From a virus: a DNA stretch of 64,000 bases. The position numbers and the translations under genes were made by a program. Shown here piece by piece: positions 31,099-64,000 of the stretch. Position 1 is the first letter of the stretch; every line of letters starts with the position of its first letter. The notes under the pieces were generated by a model. The model was not told where the DNA came from. It was given only the letters and a program-made list of their open reading frames with translations, and searched no databases. The DNA lies in the IMG/VR virus record IMGVR_UViG_3300030104_002421, positions 1 to 64,000 of that record. One strand, written 5' to 3'.

Positions 31099-31658
31099 AC
31101 TATTTTAAACTCCTTCATATCTGTTATAATATAATTGCCTGCTACACTATATCTTTCTTCATTTGTTTTCAGTATCTTATGTGGTGTGTTAGATAGAAAT
31201 ATTAATAAACTACCTTGTTCAACTGGCATACTATGACTTGTCATGTTGAATATATTATATCCTTTGACTTGTGGTCTTAATCCGTCATTTGGCCACTTTT
31301 GAAACTGACAACTTTCTCCTTTATTTATATACAGTACAAAACTGTATGTTGCGTTATTGTGTATATGTACTTCACCTTCCGTGTTAGGTTCATATTTTGT
31401 TGACCAAGACCTAGTAAGTTTTATTGGCGTATCAAACATCATTACATTATCATTAAACGCTTGTACTTCTTTTTCTACTTGATGTTTTATATATGAAAAT
31501 TTATCAAGTAATTGTTCATCAACAGATTGATAACCAAATTCTATTTTACGATATTCTGTTTTCTTAACCCAATCTATAAATTCTTCCGTTAAATGTATCT
31601 TTGTAAATCCTAAAGGTTTACTGAATAATGGTTGTATTTTCAATTCTTGCGAGTTCAC
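31095..31658 (-). CDS. Putative 2OG-Fe(II) oxygenase (TIGR02466-like)
   Basis: RSW...HIHNN...SFVLYI...PHK...RYSVAGN. Confidence 0.8.
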   Translation of the reverse strand: MNSQELKIQPLFSKPLGFTKIHLTEEFIDWVKKTEYRKIEFGYQSVDEQLLDKFSYIKHQVEKEVQAFNDNVMMFDTPIKLTRSWSTKYEPNTEGEVHIHNNATYSFVLYINKGESCQFQKWPNDGLRPQVKGYNIFNMTSHSMPVEQGSLLIFLSNTPHKILKTNEERYSVAGNYIITDMKEFKIV

Positions 31659-32175
31659 TATCTAATATACCTTTCATTTCAACATTAAAAGATATGATTG
31701 TTTTTTCTTTATCTAATAACATTTTTGGTGCTCTATGTATTGTATGACTAGGAAACATAACAATATCTCCTTCTTTTGCTTTGATAGGAAACACACCTAA
31801 TTCTCTATCATATAATTCTGTTTGTGGTGTACCTTCAGGAAGATTTACATAATAAACACCTGTAAAGTTTCTACCATGTATATGCCAACCGTGTGTAGAA
31901 TTTTCATTGTATGATTGAAACCATATCTCAAATAATTCATAATTTGCATAACCGGCAGATTGTATCATTTCTAATAAATGAGGTTTAAAGAAAGGTAGAA
32001 AAAATTTTACCCAAGGTCTTTCATAATTGTTGGCGATATCCCAATCTGTTTTTGAGATATTATCATTATAGTATTTGTCATTACTTTGTTTTGGTTCTGC
32101 CCAACCATTTTTGATATGTTGTTGTAATTGACTTTTAATTAAAATGTGTTTGTCTAAAGGTAGTTTAATAATCAT
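31618..32175 (-). CDS. Putative 2OG-Fe(II) oxygenase
   Basis: IWFQSY...HGWHIH...FTGVYY...FPSHTIHRAP...KTIISFN. Confidence 0.8.
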   Translation of the reverse strand: MIIKLPLDKHILIKSQLQQHIKNGWAEPKQSNDKYYNDNISKTDWDIANNYERPWVKFFLPFFKPHLLEMIQSAGYANYELFEIWFQSYNENSTHGWHIHGRNFTGVYYVNLPEGTPQTELYDRELGVFPIKAKEGDIVMFPSHTIHRAPKMLLDKEKTIISFNVEMKGILDSELARIENTTIIQ

Positions 32176-32771
32176 TTGTAAGGGTATCCTAGATTCCATA
32201 TTACTAAAGAGTGTCTTACACCCTTGGTAACTGGTGTAACTCTATGTTTAACAAAAGAAGGAAATATACAAATAGACCCTCTTTCTTTTATTTCATTTAC
32301 TTGAAATACACCATTTGGTGTTTCAAACTCTAAATCACCACCCTCATATTCGCCAGGGTGTGATAATTGTAATGTACAGGATAACTTTCTTATCTTACCA
32401 TGATAATTTACATTGTCATTAGTAAAAGGTTGTACATCTTGGTCAGCATGCCAATGATAGTATTGATTTAGTTTATAACGAGTAAATTGTGCAGGTTCTG
32501 AAAAGTCCCAATCAAAGTTCCATTTAGCATTTCTATTTGCTTCATCTACAAGTGGGTGTATCTCACTATAAACCCAAGGTTCTGATATCCAAGATACATT
32601 GCTGTCTCTATGTAGTTTGATTTCTTCTTGTTTTTCCTCTGCTTCCTTTGCAGATATTTGACCTGTAGTAGCAAAATCTTCTTGTAGACCTTGACCAAAC
32701 TGTACAATTTCATCACATATTCTAGGTGGAAGCGCTGCTGTAAAATAATAATAATAGTTTTCCAATATCAT
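32172..32771 (-). CDS. PKHD-type 2OG-Fe(II) hydroxylase
   Basis: WHAD...RKLSCTLQLS...YEGGDLEF...FPSFVKHRVTPVTKGVRHSLV. Confidence 0.9.
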   Translation of the reverse strand: MILENYYYYFTAALPPRICDEIVQFGQGLQEDFATTGQISAKEAEEKQEEIKLHRDSNVSWISEPWVYSEIHPLVDEANRNAKWNFDWDFSEPAQFTRYKLNQYYHWHADQDVQPFTNDNVNYHGKIRKLSCTLQLSHPGEYEGGDLEFETPNGVFQVNEIKERGSICIFPSFVKHRVTPVTKGVRHSLVIWNLGYPYK

Positions 32772-35749: not shown

Positions 35750-36356
35750 TATAACTATTAATACTTGGATTAATGATACAAATTTATGGACAACGCCTTT
35801 ATTTAATTGCAATGTACCAATTAAACCTGACTGGTTAAAGTATATCAAAGATAATACAGATAAGTTATGGGACGATACACAAAACCCTAACGGTTCATAT
35901 ACAACAAAAACTGATTTACATACACATAAAATATTTGAACCTTTAAATCAAATATTAAAACAAGTTAGTATTACTACCTTTGGTAAAAATGTAGAAAGTG
36001 TAAAAGTGGCAAACATGTGGGCAAATATACTGAAGCGTGGCGAATATCATTTATTACATACACACAATGAACACACCATGAGTGGTGCATATTACTTAAA
36101 AGTACCAGAAAATTCAGGTCAATTATATTTTAGAGACCCAAGACCAAATAGTAATTCTTGGACACAAAAATTTTTAGATAAAGGTAACATGAGGTTTTTT
36201 GATGTAAAAGAAGGCGACTTATATTTTTGGCCGTCTTTTTTAGACCATGGTACAACACCACACGGTTCTGACGAAGAAAGAATTACAATTAGTTTTGATT
36301 TAGATTATTCAGGACCTAACTATAAATTTGGAGATAACGGATACAATGGACAGTAA
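35742..36356 (+). CDS. Putative 2OG-Fe(II) oxygenase (TIGR02466-like)
   Basis: MWANI...HTH...SGAYYLKVP...FRDPRP...PSFLDHG...RITISF. Confidence 0.85.
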   Translation: MGSITINTWINDTNLWTTPLFNCNVPIKPDWLKYIKDNTDKLWDDTQNPNGSYTTKTDLHTHKIFEPLNQILKQVSITTFGKNVESVKVANMWANILKRGEYHLLHTHNEHTMSGAYYLKVPENSGQLYFRDPRPNSNSWTQKFLDKGNMRFFDVKEGDLYFWPSFLDHGTTPHGSDEERITISFDLDYSGPNYKFGDNGYNGQ

Positions 36357-50744: not shown

Positions 50745-51302
50745 ATGACAACAACAGTAAAACTAAAAACTCCTAAGAAAAAGGAACACTATGTTTCTAA
50801 CAAAGATTTTTTAGAAGCAATGAAAGACTTTAAGAAGAAGTGTTTAGCTGCAGAGAAAAGAGGAAGAAAGCAACCACCTATAAGTGATTACATAGGTGAA
50901 TGTTTTTTAAAGATTGCTAATCATCTATCCTACAGACCAAACTTCATAAACTACACATACAAAGAAGACATGATTTCAGACGGTATAGAAAACTGTTTGC
51001 AATATGTAACGAATTTTGACCCAGAGAAAAGTAACAATCCTTTTGCTTACTTTACACAGATTATATACTACGCTTTTATTCGTAGAATACAAAAAGAAAA
51101 GAAACAAACAACAATCAAACAAAAACTAATATTAAAAAGTGGCCTAGATGAATTAGTTTTACAGGCAGGTGATGATGGTGATTATCAAAACCAGTATGCT
51201 GATTTTCTTAAAAAGAATATGGTAGAAACTGAACCTGAAAAACCTAAAGAGAAAAAGGTTAGAAAGAAAGAGCCTAAAAAACTAGAATACTTTATGCAAT
51301 GA
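50745..51302 (+). CDS. gp55: Late-transcription sigma factor gp55
   Basis: HYVSNKDFL; YIGECFLKIA; DMISDGIENC; NPFAYFTQIIYYAF. Confidence 0.95.
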   Translation: MTTTVKLKTPKKKEHYVSNKDFLEAMKDFKKKCLAAEKRGRKQPPISDYIGECFLKIANHLSYRPNFINYTYKEDMISDGIENCLQYVTNFDPEKSNNPFAYFTQIIYYAFIRRIQKEKKQTTIKQKLILKSGLDELVLQAGDDGDYQNQYADFLKKNMVETEPEKPKEKKVRKKEPKKLEYFMQ

Positions 51303-52786
51303 TATTGAGAGATAAAATTATAATTGTAGGAGGTGGTAGTGCAGGCTGGATGTCAGCGGCAACACTTATCAAAGCATTTCCTGAAAAAGATATAACTGTT
51401 ATAGAAAGTCCAAATACACCAACAGTAGGTGTAGGTGAAAGTACCATTGGTAGTATTAATGATTGGTTATCTTTTTTAGAACTAGAAGATAAAGATTGGA
51501 TGCCTCATGTAGGTGCTTCATATAAATTAAGTATTAAGTTTACAGACTTCTACAAAAAAGGTGAGGAATTTCATTACCCATTTGGTTTACCTTATGAACC
51601 TTATATTAATAATGATACACGAAACAAATGGTATATAAAGAAACATTTACAAAATTGTAAAACATCTGATTATGCTGAATGTATTGCACCACAAATTGCT
51701 CTTTCCAATACAAACAAAATGGCAAAATCTTTTGATACATTTGATTATCACAAAGACGCTGCTTATCATTTTGACGCTTTACTCTTTGCAAAATATCTAA
51801 AGAATAATTATTGTTTACCAAGAGGTGTGAAACATATAGAAGAACATATAAACACGATAGAAACAAATGAACATGGTATTACATCACTTAACAATAAACA
51901 TACTGCTAACCTATACTTGGATTGTACAGGTTTTAAATCTATGTTAATGAAAGAAGTAGATGGTGAGTTTATAAACATGAACCATATCTTACCAAATGAT
52001 AGTGCATGGTCAACAAAATTAGATTATACAGATAAAGAAAAACAATTAGAACCATATACAAATTGTACAGCAATAGATAATGGTTGGGTATGGAATATAC
52101 CTCAATGGCAAAAGATTGGTACTGGTTATGTTTATTCAAGTAAGTATATTGATGATGTTCAAGCGTTACAAGACTTTCAAAACTATTTGGGAAAACCAAA
52201 AGATGTGAATTATAAACATACACGAATGAGAATAGGTAGACATAAACAAATGTGGAAAAAGAATGTATGTTCTATAGGACTGGCTGCAGGTTTTATTGAA
52301 CCTTTAGAAAGTACAGGTCTCCTTCAAACACATGGATTTTTATTAACACTTGTAAAAAATTTAGAACGAGGTAAGGTATCACAGTTTGATAAAGATACAC
52401 ACAATTTAGAATGTAATGATATATTTGATAACTTTGTGGCATTTGTCGCCATGCATTATTCTTTATCACATAGAAACGATACACAATATTGGCGTGATGT
52501 AACAAATAAAAGTATTGCTGAATTAGAACTAGTGCAAAAGGTAATGAAAGTAAAACACATTGACCATTATTTTACAATAGATGGTGGTATGCATTATATA
52601 GCAACAGGTATGAATTATGATCCTATTTCTATGACAGATATACTTACAAGACAATATGAAGTAGAGACAGATACAATAGATGAAAACTATGTGGCAGAGT
52701 TTGATATAAACAAAAATAGATGGAAAGAAAATGCATTGTTAGCACCTACACTATATAAATTTTTAAAGGAAAACATATATGAGTAA
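51299..52786 (+). CDS. Flavin-dependent halogenase (tryptophan halogenase/PrnA-like)
   Basis: GGGSAG, VGEST, YKLSIKF, WVWNIP, FIEPLESTG. Confidence 0.88.
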   Translation: MILRDKIIIVGGGSAGWMSAATLIKAFPEKDITVIESPNTPTVGVGESTIGSINDWLSFLELEDKDWMPHVGASYKLSIKFTDFYKKGEEFHYPFGLPYEPYINNDTRNKWYIKKHLQNCKTSDYAECIAPQIALSNTNKMAKSFDTFDYHKDAAYHFDALLFAKYLKNNYCLPRGVKHIEEHINTIETNEHGITSLNNKHTANLYLDCTGFKSMLMKEVDGEFINMNHILPNDSAWSTKLDYTDKEKQLEPYTNCTAIDNGWVWNIPQWQKIGTGYVYSSKYIDDVQALQDFQNYLGKPKDVNYKHTRMRIGRHKQMWKKNVCSIGLAAGFIEPLESTGLLQTHGFLLTLVKNLERGKVSQFDKDTHNLECNDIFDNFVAFVAMHYSLSHRNDTQYWRDVTNKSIAELELVQKVMKVKHIDHYFTIDGGMHYIATGMNYDPISMTDILTRQYEVETDTIDENYVAEFDINKNRWKENALLAPTLYKFLKENIYE

Positions 52787-53825: not shown

Positions 53826-54507
53826 AGAATACCCGGATCATTTATATTATAATAATGTATATTATTTTGGTCCATACATACACCACGGTAGGGTTGACCC
53901 TAACTTTGTAAGAGACCTATTAGCAGTAGGTGAACAATCACAAGGTAAACAAGATATGAAACAGAACCTAGCAGGTTCTTTAAAACAAGAATGGAAACTT
54001 AACGAAGAACAACAAAGATGGTTTGATAAATCTATGAGAATAAACTTTGAACACTACATAGATAGAAGAGCACATTGGCATAATGACCAAAATCTAAAAA
54101 ATAAAGGTTACATTATAGACAATGTATGGATTAATTATCAATATGCTACTGATTATCAACCAGAGCATATTCATTCTGGTGATTTTAGTTGGGTTATTTA
54201 CTTACAAAATCCACCAAAGATAGAAGAAGAAAGAGAAAAACACGAAACAAGAGGACCTGCACCAGGCACAATTACCTTTTCTTATGGCGAAGGTGTTGGT
54301 ATGAATACGGAATCACCTTGGGTTAGTGTACAGTCATTTGTTAATGATGTAGCAGATTTCTTTATCTTTCCGGCACAGTTAAAACATTTCGTACCACCTT
54401 TTAAGAGTGAAGGTTGTAGAATATCAGTAAGTGGTAATGGTAGTTTCCAAGAAGACCATAGTCCATATAATGATTATTCTTACGGAGCAAAACGAATTAA
54501 TTATTAA
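53812..54507 (+). CDS. Putative 2OG-Fe(II) oxygenase
   Basis: VWINYQ...PEHIHSGDFSWVIYL...FPAQLKHFVPPF...RISVSGN. Confidence 0.8.
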   Translation: MTMSEEYPDHLYYNNVYYFGPYIHHGRVDPNFVRDLLAVGEQSQGKQDMKQNLAGSLKQEWKLNEEQQRWFDKSMRINFEHYIDRRAHWHNDQNLKNKGYIIDNVWINYQYATDYQPEHIHSGDFSWVIYLQNPPKIEEEREKHETRGPAPGTITFSYGEGVGMNTESPWVSVQSFVNDVADFFIFPAQLKHFVPPFKSEGCRISVSGNGSFQEDHSPYNDYSYGAKRINY

Positions 54508-54510
54508 TAT

Positions 54511-56223
54511 ATGATTTTATTTGAGACGATTAGGTGGAAGAACTTTCTTTCCACCGGCAATACAGGTATAGAAGTTAAACTAAATGAACACCAAGATACA
54601 TTAATTGTAGGACACAATGGTGCAGGTAAATCAACAATACTTGACGCCTTGTGTTTTGGTCTTTTTAATAAACCTTTTAGAGATATTAAAAAAGAACAAA
54701 TGATTAATAGTGTTAATCTAGGTGGCACAGAAATAGAAATAGAATTTAGTATATCAAAAAATAGATATAAAATTAAACGAGGTATTAAACCTAATTTATT
54801 TGAGATATACTTAAATGATGAACTTGTTAACCAAGACGCTTCTATTGCTGACCAACAAAAATATTTAGAACAACAAATACTTAAATTTAATTATCGTAGT
54901 TTTACACAGGTCGTAATACTAGGCAGTAGTGCATTTGTACCTTTTATGGAATTAAAATCACCACATAGACGAGAAGTTGTGGAAGATATACTTGATATAA
55001 AGATATTTTCTGTAATGAATATGTTAGTGAAGATACAAATAAAAGAAATACAAGACCAGTTAAGAGATATTGATAGAGAGATTGAGATTACTAAAAATAA
55101 AGTAGAGACACAGGAAAAATATATTGAACAAACAGGTAAACAAACACAATCTACAATAGATGATTATAATACAAAGATAACAGAAAACAAAGAAGCATTA
55201 GAAAAATACAATGACCATAAAAAAGAGTTAGAGAAAGCATTAGTAAAAGAAAAAGAAAAAATACTAGATGAAGAAAAGGTAAGACAACAAGTTAAAAAAT
55301 TAAATAGTTTTGAAACACAATTTGAAAGTAAGGTAAAGGAGTGTACTAAACATAAAAGATTTTATGAAAGTAATGATAACTGTCCTACATGTCAACAAGA
55401 TATTAATCCAGAGTTTAAGTCAAAAAAGATATCTAACGAGAACAATGAGATAATTAAATTTAATCAGGCATTAGAAGATGTGGCAAAAGAGATATCATCT
55501 AAACAAAGACGATTACAAGCAATTGCTTCTGTATATGAAGATATGAAAGTTACAGAAATTGATATTGCTAAGTTTGAACAATCATCAAATGAATTACAAA
55601 ACATTAATCGTAAACTAGAAAGTCAAGTTAATACTCTTATGCAACAAAGTGAAGATACAGGTAGTGCTAAAGGTAAATTAGAAACATATCAATCAATGTT
55701 AGAAAAGTATGAAGAAGAACAGTTACGAAAAAAAGAAGAACTAGATTATTTACAGGCAGCAAGAGTAATGTTAGCAGATACAGGTATCAAAACAAAAGTA
55801 ATAAAACAATATTTACCTATTATGAACCAGTTAATTAACAAGTATCTTGCAAGTATGGATTTCTTTGTTAACTTTAAACTAGATGATGAGTTTAGAGAAA
55901 TAATACGAAGTAGATTCCGTGATGACTTTAGTTATAGTAGTTTTAGTGAAGGTGAGAAGATGAGAATAAATCTGGCATTATTGTTTACATGGCGTGCTAT
56001 TGCAAAGATGAAAAACAGTATATCTACCAATCTATTAATGTTAGATGAAATATTTGATAGTAGTTTAGATGGTCAAGGTACAGACGATTTCTTAAAGATA
56101 CTGAATACACTAGAAGGTGAGAATGTGTTTATCATATCACATAAGACAGATTTGATGGCAGATAAGTTTAAAAACATAATGAGATTTGAGAAATATAAAA
56201 ACTTTACAAGGATAGTAGAATGA
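54511..56223 (+). CDS. gp46: Recombination ATPase gp46 (Rad50/SbcC-like)
   Basis: GHNGAGKST; CPTC hook; FSEGE; LDEIFDSSLD. Confidence 0.95.
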   Translation: MILFETIRWKNFLSTGNTGIEVKLNEHQDTLIVGHNGAGKSTILDALCFGLFNKPFRDIKKEQMINSVNLGGTEIEIEFSISKNRYKIKRGIKPNLFEIYLNDELVNQDASIADQQKYLEQQILKFNYRSFTQVVILGSSAFVPFMELKSPHRREVVEDILDIKIFSVMNMLVKIQIKEIQDQLRDIDREIEITKNKVETQEKYIEQTGKQTQSTIDDYNTKITENKEALEKYNDHKKELEKALVKEKEKILDEEKVRQQVKKLNSFETQFESKVKECTKHKRFYESNDNCPTCQQDINPEFKSKKISNENNEIIKFNQALEDVAKEISSKQRRLQAIASVYEDMKVTEIDIAKFEQSSNELQNINRKLESQVNTLMQQSEDTGSAKGKLETYQSMLEKYEEEQLRKKEELDYLQAARVMLADTGIKTKVIKQYLPIMNQLINKYLASMDFFVNFKLDDEFREIIRSRFRDDFSYSSFSEGEKMRINLALLFTWRAIAKMKNSISTNLLMLDEIFDSSLDGQGTDDFLKILNTLEGENVFIISHKTDLMADKFKNIMRFEKYKNFTRIVE

Positions 56224-56831
56224 TAAACTACGAGTTATATCCTTTATTTGCTATGCCTGTATTAAAGGTTACTGAAAAATACAATATGTCAGATAGTGAA
56301 AGAAAGACTATTGAAAGTTTAGAATGGTCACCTAATCCTAATAATTTAATATCTAAAAATAATAATGTATTAACAACAATGAATGAGTTATCTGGTTTAA
56401 GAGATTATGTTTCAAAGTGGGTAAATTTTTATACAAAAGATATTATGAAAATAAAAGATGTTGAATTTTATATAACACAATCTTGGTTTAATGTAACAAG
56501 AAAAACAGAAAGTCATCATACACATACACACCCTAATAGTATTGTTAGTGGAGTTTTCCACCTTGATGATGATTTATCACATATTACTTTTGAAAGAGAA
56601 CGAACAAATGCTACTTTTGATTTAAAACTAAAATATAGTGAATACAATATACAAAATTGTAATGCTTATGATTTTAACACAGACAAAAATACTTTGATAA
56701 TATTTCCATCAAAACTACCTCATAAGGTAAAAGTGAACAATGATAATAGAGATAGATATAGCATGTCTTTTAATACATTTGTTAAGGGGTCAATGGGTGA
56801 TGAAAACGAATTAGACTTATTAGAATTATGA
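56220..56831 (+). CDS. Putative 2OG-Fe(II) oxygenase (TIGR02466-like)
   Basis: TQSWFN...HTHPNSIVSGVF...FPSKLPHKV...RYSMSFN. Confidence 0.85.
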   Translation: MINYELYPLFAMPVLKVTEKYNMSDSERKTIESLEWSPNPNNLISKNNNVLTTMNELSGLRDYVSKWVNFYTKDIMKIKDVEFYITQSWFNVTRKTESHHTHTHPNSIVSGVFHLDDDLSHITFERERTNATFDLKLKYSEYNIQNCNAYDFNTDKNTLIIFPSKLPHKVKVNNDNRDRYSMSFNTFVKGSMGDENELDLLEL

Positions 56832-57550
56832 AATATTTTCCTGCCGTTATAGATAATTTTTTTGACAAACCAGATTTGGTTAGAGAGTTTGCTTTATCTT
56901 TAGATTATGCACCTGATGATAAAGGTAGGTGGCCTGGGCAAAGAAGTGAATCCTTGCACATGATAGATTATGAATTGTATATGAGTGTAATGTTAAAAAT
57001 TATGTCCATATATACAGACTTTGCTTATACAAATGTTACTTGGGAAAATGCTTCTCTTTATTTTCATAAGATAAAAGATACAGGCGATAAAGAATTAAAT
57101 AAAGGTTGGATTCATATTGACCAAGATTTTCAATTAGCAGGTCTTTGTTATCTAAATCCTGGTGTAAATGATATGAATTTAGGAACCTCAATTTATTCAA
57201 AAAAAGGATTTCACCAGAAGTTTGAAAGACACCATTATAAACATATGTATTATAAAGGTGAACAAATTAATTTGAATGACTATAAAAAGAAATTAAGTGA
57301 ACACAATAATGAATATGATGAAACAATTAAAATTGGTAATGTATATAATAGAATGATTACTTATGATACATTAGAACATCATACTTTAAATGGGATACCA
57401 AAAGATGAAGAAAGATTAACTATGTTATTGTTTATGGATGGTATTAAACCAGAAGATAATAGATTTCCTAATAACAGAATTAAAGATGTAAAACAATATG
57501 ATAGTTTTATTGAAGAAAGGATTAGGTTTTTAAATGAACATAAAAAATGA
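56828..57550 (+). CDS. 2OG-Fe(II) oxygenase-like protein
   Basis: IDNFFDKPD..R; WPGQRS; GWIHID; YLNP; GTSIY; NVYNR; RLT. Confidence 0.75.
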   Translation: MKYFPAVIDNFFDKPDLVREFALSLDYAPDDKGRWPGQRSESLHMIDYELYMSVMLKIMSIYTDFAYTNVTWENASLYFHKIKDTGDKELNKGWIHIDQDFQLAGLCYLNPGVNDMNLGTSIYSKKGFHQKFERHHYKHMYYKGEQINLNDYKKKLSEHNNEYDETIKIGNVYNRMITYDTLEHHTLNGIPKDEERLTMLLFMDGIKPEDNRFPNNRIKDVKQYDSFIEERIRFLNEHKK

Positions 57551-57776
57551 AATACTAACAATACTTATGGAAGAATGTGCTGAAACAAGTATTGAATGTA
57601 GTAAGGTTATCCGTTTTAATATAGATAATACTGAACGATTAGAAAAAGAATTAGGTGATGTATTAATGATGATAAAATTATTATCTGAAAATAATATAGT
57701 AACAATGGAAAACATTGAAGCTGCTGCCAGACAAAAAAGAGAGAAACTTAAAACTTGGAGTAAAATACCATTATGA
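57534..57776 (+). CDS. MazG-like NTP pyrophosphohydrolase
   Basis: LMEECAE...SKVIRF...LEKELGDVL (EExxE...ExxD). Confidence 0.75.
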   Translation: MNIKNEILTILMEECAETSIECSKVIRFNIDNTERLEKELGDVLMMIKLLSENNIVTMENIEAAARQKREKLKTWSKIPL

Positions 57777-58783
57777 AAATAACTATTGCAAGATTACGAA
57801 GTGGTACTAATTATAAAGAACCACTACATGATATTATGGATAGTTTCTATGAACTATACAAAAGATACATGGAAGAAAATCAACAACACACTTATGGTGT
57901 ATATAACTTTGGTTGGGGACATGCAAACAGAAAAAAGTTAGATGATATACCAGATAGTGATGTTATTATTATACCAAGTGAAAACGAGTTTACTCAACAT
58001 ATAAAAAACTTTGTTGACCCAAGACATAAAGCAAGAAGTGATGAAATGGTCAAACAAATAGGTGAACACTTGGCAAATAAGCATGTAATGATATGGCGTA
58101 GTGATAGAGCAGACAATGAAGAACTGTATAGAAACAAAACATTTAAAGACCAACCCATTGGTAAGTTTAGTACATTAGACGAAATGGATATACCTGGTGG
58201 TCTACATGGTATGAAATATCACTTTATTACAGATAACTATCCTGCTAAACTAGATGAGACAAGAGATATAGATTTTATATATTGGGGTACAGATAAAAGA
58301 AAGACAACAGAAAATGTTGATAGTGGTGATCCTAGGCACAAAGTATTTAAACAGATATACAAAGAAAAGAAGTTATCATCTTATTGGATTGGCAAGTTTA
58401 GTAATATAGAAAGAAACATGAAGATAAACCGTATGGTACATATATTACCATATCTTACAAGTGGTAAAGGTACATTGTGTTTTAACTGGATGAGTGAGAC
58501 AGCCACAACAAGTAGATACCACGAGGCATTGGCATGTGGTCTTATACCATTTGTGTGGCATAACTATGATATCAAAAATACAATTGTTGGTGACCCATGG
58601 CAAAGAGTATCAAGTGTGGAAGAACTATATGAAAAGTACGAAGAACTGAATAGTGCCAAAGGAGACTTATGGGGTCAAAAATTCTTTGAAATAGAACTAG
58701 AATATCAAAAGAATGTCCTGAAGTCAAAAGATGAGTATTATCAATTGTTTAAATCAAGGCTTGACAAATTGTTAGAAATATGA
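57773..58783 (+). CDS. GT-B glycosyltransferase resembling T4 DNA beta-glucosyltransferase
   Basis: DFIYWG...SGDPR and TSRYHEALAC...YDIKNTIV...VSSVEELYEK parallel T4 BGT DVIYGG..RSGQR and TLRVWETMAS...FDTKHRII...VNNRAELIDR (recalled from memory). Confidence 0.65.
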   Translation: MKITIARLRSGTNYKEPLHDIMDSFYELYKRYMEENQQHTYGVYNFGWGHANRKKLDDIPDSDVIIIPSENEFTQHIKNFVDPRHKARSDEMVKQIGEHLANKHVMIWRSDRADNEELYRNKTFKDQPIGKFSTLDEMDIPGGLHGMKYHFITDNYPAKLDETRDIDFIYWGTDKRKTTENVDSGDPRHKVFKQIYKEKKLSSYWIGKFSNIERNMKINRMVHILPYLTSGKGTLCFNWMSETATTSRYHEALACGLIPFVWHNYDIKNTIVGDPWQRVSSVEELYEKYEELNSAKGDLWGQKFFEIELEYQKNVLKSKDEYYQLFKSRLDKLLEI

Positions 58784-58789
58784 TAGCCT
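58761..58789 (+). promoter_or_regulatory. sigma70-type promoter of DUF4338 gene
   Basis: TTGACA-17-TAGCCT with extended -10 TG. Confidence 0.55.
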
Positions 58790-58802
58790 AATAGTTTATA
58801 TT

Positions 58803-60059
58803 ATGGAAAAGAAAATTGACCCGCTATTAGAAGAGCAATGGGAGGTATTTCAAAAAGAAAACCCAAGTGCGACATTTCGACACATAGATGAGACAAAACT
58901 AAAAGATAACTTAACAAAAGAATTATCTTATGCTGCCAATATGTCAGTAGAAGAATATACACTATATCAAAAATGGTGTGAAGTTAAAAACAAATATCCT
59001 GCTCAAGTAGTAAACACATTGTTTGGCGAAGAAAGTCAATTAGTAGATTTATCAAAAGACAAATTATTAGTACATGTTAAAAACAATATATGGGCACCTA
59101 AAGACCCTATGGATTTTGAGAAGTTAGAACCAGAACTAATCTATACAAAAGATGACCCTAGTTACCCACAATTGTGGAATGCAATAAGAACATTTGCCTC
59201 TACAATGAAGAACAATAACAATATAGGTCGTAATTTAAACTTTATAGTAAGAGACAAACCAACAAAGAAATATCTAGGTGTCATTTGTATATCAAGTGAT
59301 TTTTTAGATTTAACACCTAGAGATAATTACATAGGTTGGGATAGAGAAAGAAAAACTAAAAAGATGATTAATCATACTGCTATTGGTAGTACGATTGTTC
59401 CATTACAACCACTAGGTTTTAATTATACTGGTGGTAAGTTACTGGCATTATTATGTCTATCTGATAAAGTACAAGAAACATGGAAAAAAGAATATGGTGA
59501 TACAATGGTTGGTGTTACAACAACAAGTCTCTATGGTAGTTTTAGTCAGTATCAAAATCTAAAATACTGGAAGAAAAGAGGTCATAGTGCAGGTAGTGTA
59601 TCATATGAAGCAACGAAACCTACAATACAAATGTTAAGAGATTGGTTAAAAGAAAATCATACTAGAAAATTCTTTGAATGGTATAGTGCTACAAAACCTA
59701 CAGGACAACCTTATAAGAGAGACCATAGAAATAGAAGTCATACATTTGCTTATGGTAAACTAGGTATACCTAAAGAAATTACAAAGTCAGCACATAGTAG
59801 AGGTATCTATTTCAGTACACTATACGACAATACATGTGAGTTTTTAAGAGAAGAAATAGAAGAAGATAAACTAAAGAAATCATTTGATAGTAGTATTGAA
59901 GGACTTGTAAATGTATGGAAGAACAAGTATGCTAGTAAGCGTATAAAATCGCTGATTAACCAATCTAGGACAAACATGGAATCACTTTATTATGATGACT
60001 TGATACATCTATCATGGGAAGAAACAAAAAATAAGTATCTAAAACAAGTAGGAAGATGA
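58803..60059 (+). CDS. DUF4338/DruA-like protein (predicted GNAT-type fold)
   Basis: GRNLNFIVRD...LGVICISSD...RDNYIGW...PLQP...GGKLLALL...TTSLYG..SQY. Confidence 0.75.
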   Translation: MEKKIDPLLEEQWEVFQKENPSATFRHIDETKLKDNLTKELSYAANMSVEEYTLYQKWCEVKNKYPAQVVNTLFGEESQLVDLSKDKLLVHVKNNIWAPKDPMDFEKLEPELIYTKDDPSYPQLWNAIRTFASTMKNNNNIGRNLNFIVRDKPTKKYLGVICISSDFLDLTPRDNYIGWDRERKTKKMINHTAIGSTIVPLQPLGFNYTGGKLLALLCLSDKVQETWKKEYGDTMVGVTTTSLYGSFSQYQNLKYWKKRGHSAGSVSYEATKPTIQMLRDWLKENHTRKFFEWYSATKPTGQPYKRDHRNRSHTFAYGKLGIPKEITKSAHSRGIYFSTLYDNTCEFLREEIEEDKLKKSFDSSIEGLVNVWKNKYASKRIKSLINQSRTNMESLYYDDLIHLSWEETKNKYLKQVGR

Positions 60060-60182
60060 GAACATATAGAGAACACCAAGAGTGTTGCAAAAATACAACA
60101 CTAATAAAATGCTAAACCATTGAAATATAACGATTTTAATTTATATTATTTTGTTGACAAATGAACCAAAATGGTATAGGAT
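60060..60182 (+). promoter_or_regulatory. Composite early promoter, second copy
   Basis: GAAC-N7-GAAC 60060-60074; 18-mer 60083-60100; TGCTAAACCATTGAAA 60110-60125; TTGACA-17-TAGGAT. Confidence 0.75.
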
Positions 60183-63930: not shown

Positions 63931-63940
63931 TCTACTTTGA

Positions 63941-64000
63941 GCGGGTTAAGTATAAAAGTAATACGCTTTGCTACCAGTAAAGAGAACTTTGGGCAGTACA
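63941..64000 (+). tRNA. Non-canonical tRNA-Gly(ACC)-like gene, 3' end cut by window
   Basis: GCGGGTT acceptor 5' strand; D stem GTAT/ATAC; anticodon stem CTTTG/TAAAG with loop CT-ACC-AG; T stem CTTTG, 7-nt loop, then CA. Confidence 0.7.

Follow-up and report, generated by a model that had tools for sequence, protein, structure and literature searches.

Does a row of five contiguous genes in the recombination operon of a marine phage encode a pathway for the hypermodification of phage DNA? The row lies in a stretch of 64,000 nucleotides (hereafter the window) that forms the start of the 146,188-base IMG/VR virus record IMGVR_UViG_3300030104_002421, a record with a completeness rating of 99%. 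A first-pass annotation, made from the sequence of the window, had interpreted two oxygenases, a MazG-like protein, a glycosyltransferase resembling the DNA beta-glucosyltransferase (BGT) of phage T4 and a DUF4338 protein as one hypermodification cluster. According to our analysis, the functional unit is the glycosyltransferase gene (here BGT-like) followed by the DUF4338 gene (here DruA-like), and not the five-gene row; the conserved unit probably includes a tRNA-Gly look-alike as well. We posit that BGT-like and DruA-like modify the DNA of the phage and that the genes preceding them are optional, a reading to which we assign somewhat less than even odds (roughly 45%). What stood of the earlier interpretation are thus its BGT and DruA/GNAT assignments, but not the five-gene cluster. 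The region matches Pelagibacter phage HTVC008M (Kyanoviridae), with 82% nucleotide identity across about half of 6.4 kb, and the window belongs to a T4-like pelagimyophage close to this SAR11 phage.

The glycosyltransferase and its DruA-family partner

The fourth gene of the row (57773-58783, + strand) encodes the BGT-like protein of 336 amino acids (aa), for which no match was found in Pfam, NCBIfam or PHROG. A single-sequence search of the PDB likewise returned no match for either this protein or DruA-like. A word-indexed search yielded a metagenomic family of 746 proteins (135 representatives at 50% clustering), and a 42-member profile of the family had T4 BGT (1bgt) as its sole significant PDB match (E 2e-4). 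In the hmmsearch and hhalign alignments, the residues R269 and E272 of T4 BGT, which are involved in the binding of uridine diphosphate (UDP), correspond to the invariant R248 and E251 of the family, and the YGGSFR loop (R191 loop) aligns to YWGTDKR. The AlphaFold (AF2) model of BGT-like has a pLDDT of 95, and Foldseek ranked the T4 alpha-glucosyltransferase (AGT) and BGT first. With VIA-align, the model matched T4 BGT as a full-length GT-B fold (Z 20.9, 297 of 336 residues, root mean square deviation 3.5), T4 AGT with Z 16.6 and the best unrelated GT-B with Z 14.7. A nearly invariant acidic motif after the fourth strand, DRADNEE (D111, D114), is a candidate equivalent of Asp100, the catalytic base in the N-terminal domain of T4 BGT.

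Grouping with glycosyltransferases of lipopolysaccharide or protein, named by the first-pass annotation as the outcome contradicting it, was looked at by fold comparison and did not occur: the model groups with T4 BGT and AGT, and its match to BGT is about 6 Z above generic GT-B folds. The predicted structure and the family profile therefore identify the 336-aa protein as a true homologue of T4 BGT. BGT-like and T4 BGT (PDB 1bgt, 1nzd, 1qkj) share the two-domain GT-B fold, a C-terminal domain that is detectable by profile, the UDP-binding Arg/Glu and an origin in T4-like phages. They differ in that BGT-like is only about 14% identical to the T4 enzyme and has no Pfam match, and in that it is coupled, in the IMG/VR loci described below, to a DruA-like or an amino-methyltransferase-like partner.

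DruA-like (418 aa; 58803-60059, + strand) matches PF14236 with 72.5 bits (E 4e-20, cut-off 27) and the PADLOC DruA model PDLC00002 with an E-value of 1.5e-20 over positions 79-371 of 407. Its neighbours are BGT-like and a peptidase gene instead of the DruB-D and DruE genes of a Druantia operon, and no match to the DruE-type MZB domain (PF09369, DUF1998) was found in the genome. The call of a stand-alone member of the DruA family was hence correct. While DruA-like is homologous to the DruA of type I Druantia over nearly the whole model, it is located in the replication and recombination operon of a lytic phage and lacks DruB-E, it is linked both to a BGT homologue and to a tRNA look-alike, and there are two paralogues per phage genome. 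The second paralogue (376 aa, approximately 25% identical) is encoded at genome positions 71595-72725 (L003:1240-2370) between the DNA polymerase gene gp43 and UvsX, an interval that in T4 holds gene 42 and beta-gt. Over 4,000 metagenomic proteins are close relatives of DruA-like, and weaker homologues occur in marine Synechococcus myophages; the second paralogue likewise has thousands of metagenomic relatives.

DUF4338 has been called a GNAT by others (PMC10853773), and in the literature on DruA and DUF4338 we found no mechanism for DruA. The DruA-like model (pLDDT 84) is predicted to have a GNAT core at approximately residues 105-362. Foldseek against the PDB returned only weak GNAT matches (E around 0.01). 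Mom of phage Mu (8bv8) was nominally the top structural match, with Z 10.4 and 10.1 among the Foldseek candidates and in a separate scan of 48,161 PDB representatives, respectively; its alignments, of 181 and 169 aa, were also the longest. The Pfam scan of DruA-like showed no Mom family at an E-value of 0.01 or better. Mom moves glycine from Gly-tRNAGly to the N6 of adenine in double-stranded DNA (PMC13219725). DruA-like resembles it in a predicted GNAT core with extra inserted helices, in being phage-encoded and in its genetic linkage to a glycine-tRNA-like RNA. It differs in being twice the size, with helical extensions at both the N- and C-terminus, and in lacking significant sequence or profile similarity; moreover, Mom uses the tRNAGly of the host, whereas DruA-like comes with a private, non-canonical tRNA look-alike. 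In BFVD, the nearest viral neighbours of the DruA-like model by structure include uncharacterised giant-virus proteins (Faunusvirus, E 9e-18; Yasminevirus; Dasosvirus), some of which form part of proteins longer than 1,100 aa.

In order to compare the gene neighbourhoods, 80 IMG/VR loci encoding BGT-like relatives were labelled (L numbers), 57 of which had enough downstream sequence to be informative. Their common order is gp47-(2OG)-gp46-slot-BGT-like-(gp105)-DruA-like-peptidase-CobS, where 2OG denotes a 2-oxoglutarate-dependent oxygenase gene, the slot is the interval between gp46 and BGT-like, and brackets mark genes that are not always present. BGT-like is followed by DruA-like in 44 of the 57 loci, by a protein of 355-398 aa in nine, by the peptidase in one and by another context in three. 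In the 44 loci the two genes often overlap, and the same order is kept in HTVC008M. The protein that replaces DruA-like in nine loci overlaps BGT-like by 8 bases, carries the motifs DPxxG and SPPYF and weakly matches DNA amino-methyltransferases (PF01555, E 7e-5, and several PADLOC type II methyltransferase models). A PALP-like gene of 250 aa lies just 5' in all nine of these methylase-partner loci and in none of the 44 DruA-type loci.

The partnership is also found within a single protein. Metagenomic protein P0316 (808 aa) is a fusion of BGT-like with ParB_N and N6_N4_Mtase domains, the latter scoring 41.8 bits and thus over its cut-off, which ties the BGT-like family to DNA. Behind the fusion, its contig (L092) encodes an Asp/Arg-hydroxylase-type oxygenase and carries a homologous PALP-like gene (34% identity, E 6e-36). 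A PALP-like neighbour is present as well on the short contig of one distant BGT homologue (P0283/P0309). We consider the partner swaps together with the fusion as the best evidence here that BGT-like may act on DNA with a base-modifying partner. As a separate observation, several more distant phage contigs carry an alternative module of PALP-like, BGT-like and SPPY-type amino-methyltransferase-like genes (L069:4538-7366, L074, L080, L092:5651-9932).

A tRNA-Gly look-alike linked to DruA-like

Between CobS and the S21 gene, at positions 63940-64015 of the genome (+ strand; 63940-64000 within the window), we found a 76-nt RNA whose minimum free energy fold is a cloverleaf (z -3.1) with anticodon ACC and an encoded CCA end. 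Its D loop lacks GG and its T loop reads GGCAGUA. Neither ARAGORN nor Rfam detected a tRNA in the window or across 60-76 kb of the genome, and the look-alike was found only via folding, covariation and a custom model. HTVC008M, a phage listed with 0 tRNAs, carries an unannotated homologue. Across four distinct homologues, pairing is kept in 98.8% of the cells and compensatory change is seen at 11 of the 21 pairs; neither shuffles nor slid registers came close to these values. Invariant are G1-C72, C2-G71 and G3-C70 of the acceptor stem, U73 and C35/C36, with the anticodon being UCC in one relative. These positions match the identity set of bacterial glycyl-tRNA synthetase (GlyRS). The covariance model detects one copy in this genome (E 1e-22) and one after CobS in HTVC008M-like loci.

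A shorter form accompanies DruA-like in the clade with a peptide deformylase in the slot. Directly 3' of the DruA-like stop, these loci (L018:12302-12367, L038, L053 and ten further loci) contain a 63-nt tRNA-like RNA that was spotted by eye and checked with alifold. This mini RNA consists of an acceptor arm and a T arm without a D arm, has a 4-nt loop of CCCA or CCCC and shares the GCGG...CCGC-U-CCA ends of the 76-nt form; 9 of its 18 pairs are compensatory and none is mismatched. Open reading frames (ORFs) of 66-70 aa called over it are probably spurious. The cloverleaf model (R1) itself had no match in the peptide-deformylase-type loci. Nor did it have one in the methylase-partner loci, and the RNA is absent from the CobS-S21 junction of L082. 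No tRNA-like RNA was found behind the second DruA paralogue, where the gap is occupied by a promoter and a 70-aa ORF. It is suggestive that the look-alike travels with DruA-like, and by analogy with Mom this linkage would fit a glycyl-tRNA-dependent reaction.

A variable slot and the competing readings

The remaining genes of the row precede the pair on the + strand. Following gp46/SbcC (54511-56223), which is contiguous with the row, are a 2OG-Fe(II) oxygenase of the PF13759 family (203 aa; 56220-56831; Pfam E 2e-18, PHROG 81 E 3e-34), a DUF6445 protein (240 aa; 56828-57550; Pfam E 6e-8, PHROG 1644 E 1e-33) and a mini MazG/HisE-type all-alpha NTP pyrophosphohydrolase (80 aa; 57534-57776; PHROG 4856 E 2e-15). 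The overlaps from gp46 to BGT-like are 4, 4, 17 and 4 bases, and a gap of 19 bases precedes DruA-like, so that the five genes are indeed contiguous and overlap from gp46 to the glycosyltransferase, as annotated in the first pass. The DUF6445 protein displays the HxD...H...R pattern typical of 2OG/Fe(II) oxygenases (HxD at H96, H184/185, R196). The mini-MazG, whose stop overlaps the BGT-like start, is borderline in Pfam (E 2.5e-4, 21.7 bits against a cut-off of 22), possesses the metal-binding motifs EExxE (EECAE at residue 13) and ExxD (ELGD at 39), aligns weakly to HisE (1yvw) from about residue 34 on and is the only MazG-family match in the genome.

The local order on this strand is tryptophan halogenase, gp47/SbcD, 2OG oxygenase, gp46/SbcC, the five genes, peptidase (PHROG 459) and CobS. 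The tryptophan-halogenase-family gene (51299-52786; Pfam E 2e-103) lies directly 5' of gp47/SbcD and overlaps it within the recombination operon. Right behind the DruA-like stop there is a 9-bp palindromic hairpin (60081-60102), and a promoter-like TTGACA-17-TAGGAT (60154-60182) is located ahead of the peptidase gene, with no comparable break within the block from gp47 to DruA-like. Just beyond the window, a weak match to the ROSE_3 thermometer (G000:C1:64672-64735; L090:4673-4736) scores 22.7 bits (E 0.6), which is below the gathering score; it extends over the start and the ribosome-binding site of an ORF (141 aa) that lies where HTVC008M has its Hsp20 gene.

Among relatives, the slot is hypervariable. 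Most contain a peptide deformylase (51 slot ORFs cluster with it, and in 28 loci it is the sole occupant), and in HTVC008M and its nearest kin the slot is empty. DUF6445 stands alone in four loci (L006, L007, L064, L065), a 2OG gene together with the deformylase occurs in only two related loci, and a mini-MazG alone and a Methyltransf_24 gene in one locus each. The conservation of five genes as one cluster is thus not borne out; only BGT-like followed by DruA-like is kept in 44 of 57 loci. About 13 paralogues of the PF13759 family (2OG-FeII_Oxy_5) are scattered across the 146-kb genome, and therefore the oxygenases and the mini-MazG are not an obligate part of the unit. We regard them as exchangeable cargo and as optional helpers at most. 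The PF13759 set is unusually large for one phage genome and includes further copies in the window at 31137-32288, 36012-36299 and 54124-54438.

An obligate five-gene pathway, in which the oxygenases hydroxylate a base as in base J synthesis, BGT-like glycosylates it, the mini-MazG clears the competing deoxynucleoside triphosphate (dNTP) and DruA-like adds an independent Mom-like mark, is distinctly unlikely in our view. It would account for the recurrence beside BGT-like, in different lineages, of oxygenases from five families: 2OG-FeII_Oxy_5, DUF6445, the JmjC/cupin-type gp105, 2OGa-like (L074-L076) and Asp_Arg_Hydrox (L092), a recurrence that speaks against pure chance. The gp105 gene (PF08007, E 2e-7; L001:9125-9652) lies between BGT-like and DruA-like in HTVC008M, L012 and L013 and is not in the window. 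Such a pathway would also explain why the same 80-aa mini-MazG directly abuts the 5' side of BGT-like in three separate lineages (also in L058 and L080-L082). However, the deformylase-only and empty slots are difficult to reconcile with an obligate row, the 2OG and DUF6445 (gp037) pair of HTVC008M is encoded at 25 kb, 60 kb away from its BGT-like locus, and with so many scattered paralogues chance adjacency is expected fairly often. Furthermore, no oxygenase is TET/JBP-like by Pfam. The likeness to base J synthesis in trypanosomes and to the TET/methylase/glycosyltransferase pathways of phages, which modify, hydroxylate and glycosylate, lies in the co-occurrence of a base modifier, 2OG oxygenases and a glycosyltransferase, and it is clearest in L074-L076 and L092. 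The differences are that the oxygenases here are outside the TET/JBP family and facultative in the DruA-type module, and that the methylase-like partner is of the amino (SPPY) type and not of the C5 type.

In the reading that we favour, with BGT-like and DruA-like as the modifying pair, BGT-like would be a nucleotide-sugar-dependent GT-B enzyme of the T4 BGT lineage that most likely attaches a sugar to a base in phage DNA. DruA-like would most likely act in a Mom-like manner, with the host GlyRS charging the phage-encoded tRNA-Gly look-alike and the glycine being placed onto an exocyclic base amine in DNA. The slot oxygenases and the mini-MazG may at most assist, for instance by providing a hydroxyl as acceptor or by trimming the dNTP pool. 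That the target is DNA and the donor glycine is what we infer, and so is any order of the steps.

A number of observations weigh against this reading. Pfam-type scans of the 146-kb genome found no ThyA-type hydroxymethylase (PF00303), ThyX or Tet_JBP, so that the lack of a visible hydroxymethylase or TET, pointed out earlier for the window, extends to the whole genome and the T4-type route to 5-hydroxymethylcytosine is absent. Searches with tblastn for T4 gp42, gp56, Dam and BGT returned nothing at useful E-values in the genome, and PF01555 produced just one sub-threshold match of 14 bits. Unlike T4, the phage thus lacks the dCMP hydroxymethylase and the dCTPase, and 5-hydroxymethylcytosine is therefore unlikely to be the sugar acceptor. 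The look-alike lies 3.9 kb from DruA-like in this genome, no RNA was detected near the DruA-like genes of L046 and L047, and the co-occurrence of RNA and DruA-like was seen in few independent lineages, with flanks of about 10 kb being searched. With regard to DruA-like itself, Mom leads ordinary acetyl-CoA GNATs by less than 1 Z, with generic GNATs coming within 0.3 Z, the hhalign comparison of its profile with Mom gave a non-significant probability of 0.3%, and its QxxGxxxxGG loop resembles the coenzyme A (CoA)-binding motif of GNATs. As Mom is the top match but generic GNATs follow closely and the profile comparison is not significant, we hold to the GNAT fold on the basis of the model and consider a specific kinship to Mom plausible but unproven. 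The earlier suggestion of a Mom-like GNAT accordingly stands for the fold and for Mom as the nominal best structural match; it does not stand for a distinction from ordinary GNATs or for profile similarity. Finally, SAR11 hosts seldom carry restriction systems, which has led to the argument that the glycosyltransferases of pelagimyophages have their targets on the surface of the host (PMC7029224).

Some of these points would be expected if the genes were unrelated auxiliary cargo of a variable island, with BGT-like acting on an envelope precursor, a protein or a metabolite and DruA-like being an acyl-CoA acetyltransferase of a protein or small molecule. The argument for surface-directed glycosyltransferases, the absence of a hydroxymethyl-base pathway, the equally good match of DruA-like to generic GNATs with its CoA-loop-like motif, and the metabolic genes nearby (tryptophan halogenase, peptide deformylase, CobS, peptidase) all agree with such a scenario. 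We nevertheless rate it as unlikely, because the closest folds of BGT-like are, by a clear margin, the two DNA glucosyltransferases of T4, the partner is exchanged for a DNA amino-methyltransferase-like protein, and BGT-like, ParB_N and a DNA methylase occur joined in one natural protein. In addition, the pair is placed inside a recombination and replication operon with translational overlap, and a private tRNA-Gly look-alike tracks DruA-like. That DruA-like might instead be a counter-defence decoy or inhibitor, mimicking the DruA of a host Druantia system and not acting enzymatically on phage DNA, is very improbable. Its homology over nearly the full DruA model and its stand-alone occurrence without DruB-E are consistent with a decoy. 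Yet the catalytic-looking motifs QPxGxNYxGGK and TTSLYG are strictly conserved in the two divergent paralogues of this genome and found in thousands of marine phage proteins, which argues for enzymatic constraint, and one would not expect a decoy to be linked to a structured tRNA-Gly look-alike.

Implications for pelagimyophages and the DruA family

SAR11, the host of pelagimyophages, is among the most abundant marine bacteria. To our knowledge, no DNA modification has been described for pelagimyophages, and we know of no activity for DruA, a component of a defence system. A BGT homologue without a hydroxymethylcytosine pathway would imply either that DNA offers a novel acceptor for the sugar or that the BGT scaffold has been put to a new use. 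The presence of a DruA-family enzyme in the cultured phage HTVC008M, where it is linked to a glycine-tRNA mimic, makes the activity of DruA directly testable, and the swap between DruA-like and the amino-methyltransferase-like protein provides, together with the natural fusion, a comparative handle on the pathway.

One could also imagine the components working in series, with DruA-like taking glycine from its private tRNA-Gly look-alike, which would not serve in decoding, and placing it on an exocyclic amine, the 2OG oxygenase of the respective lineage (JmjC, DUF6445 or AspH type) hydroxylating the adduct and the BGT homologue glycosylating the hydroxyl or the amide. We consider this three-step pathway more doubtful still than an obligate five-gene pathway. 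If it were true, a second route to a similar product would be represented by the alternative module with its PALP-like, amino-methyltransferase-like and BGT-like genes, and the DruA family of Druantia would gain its first chemistry.

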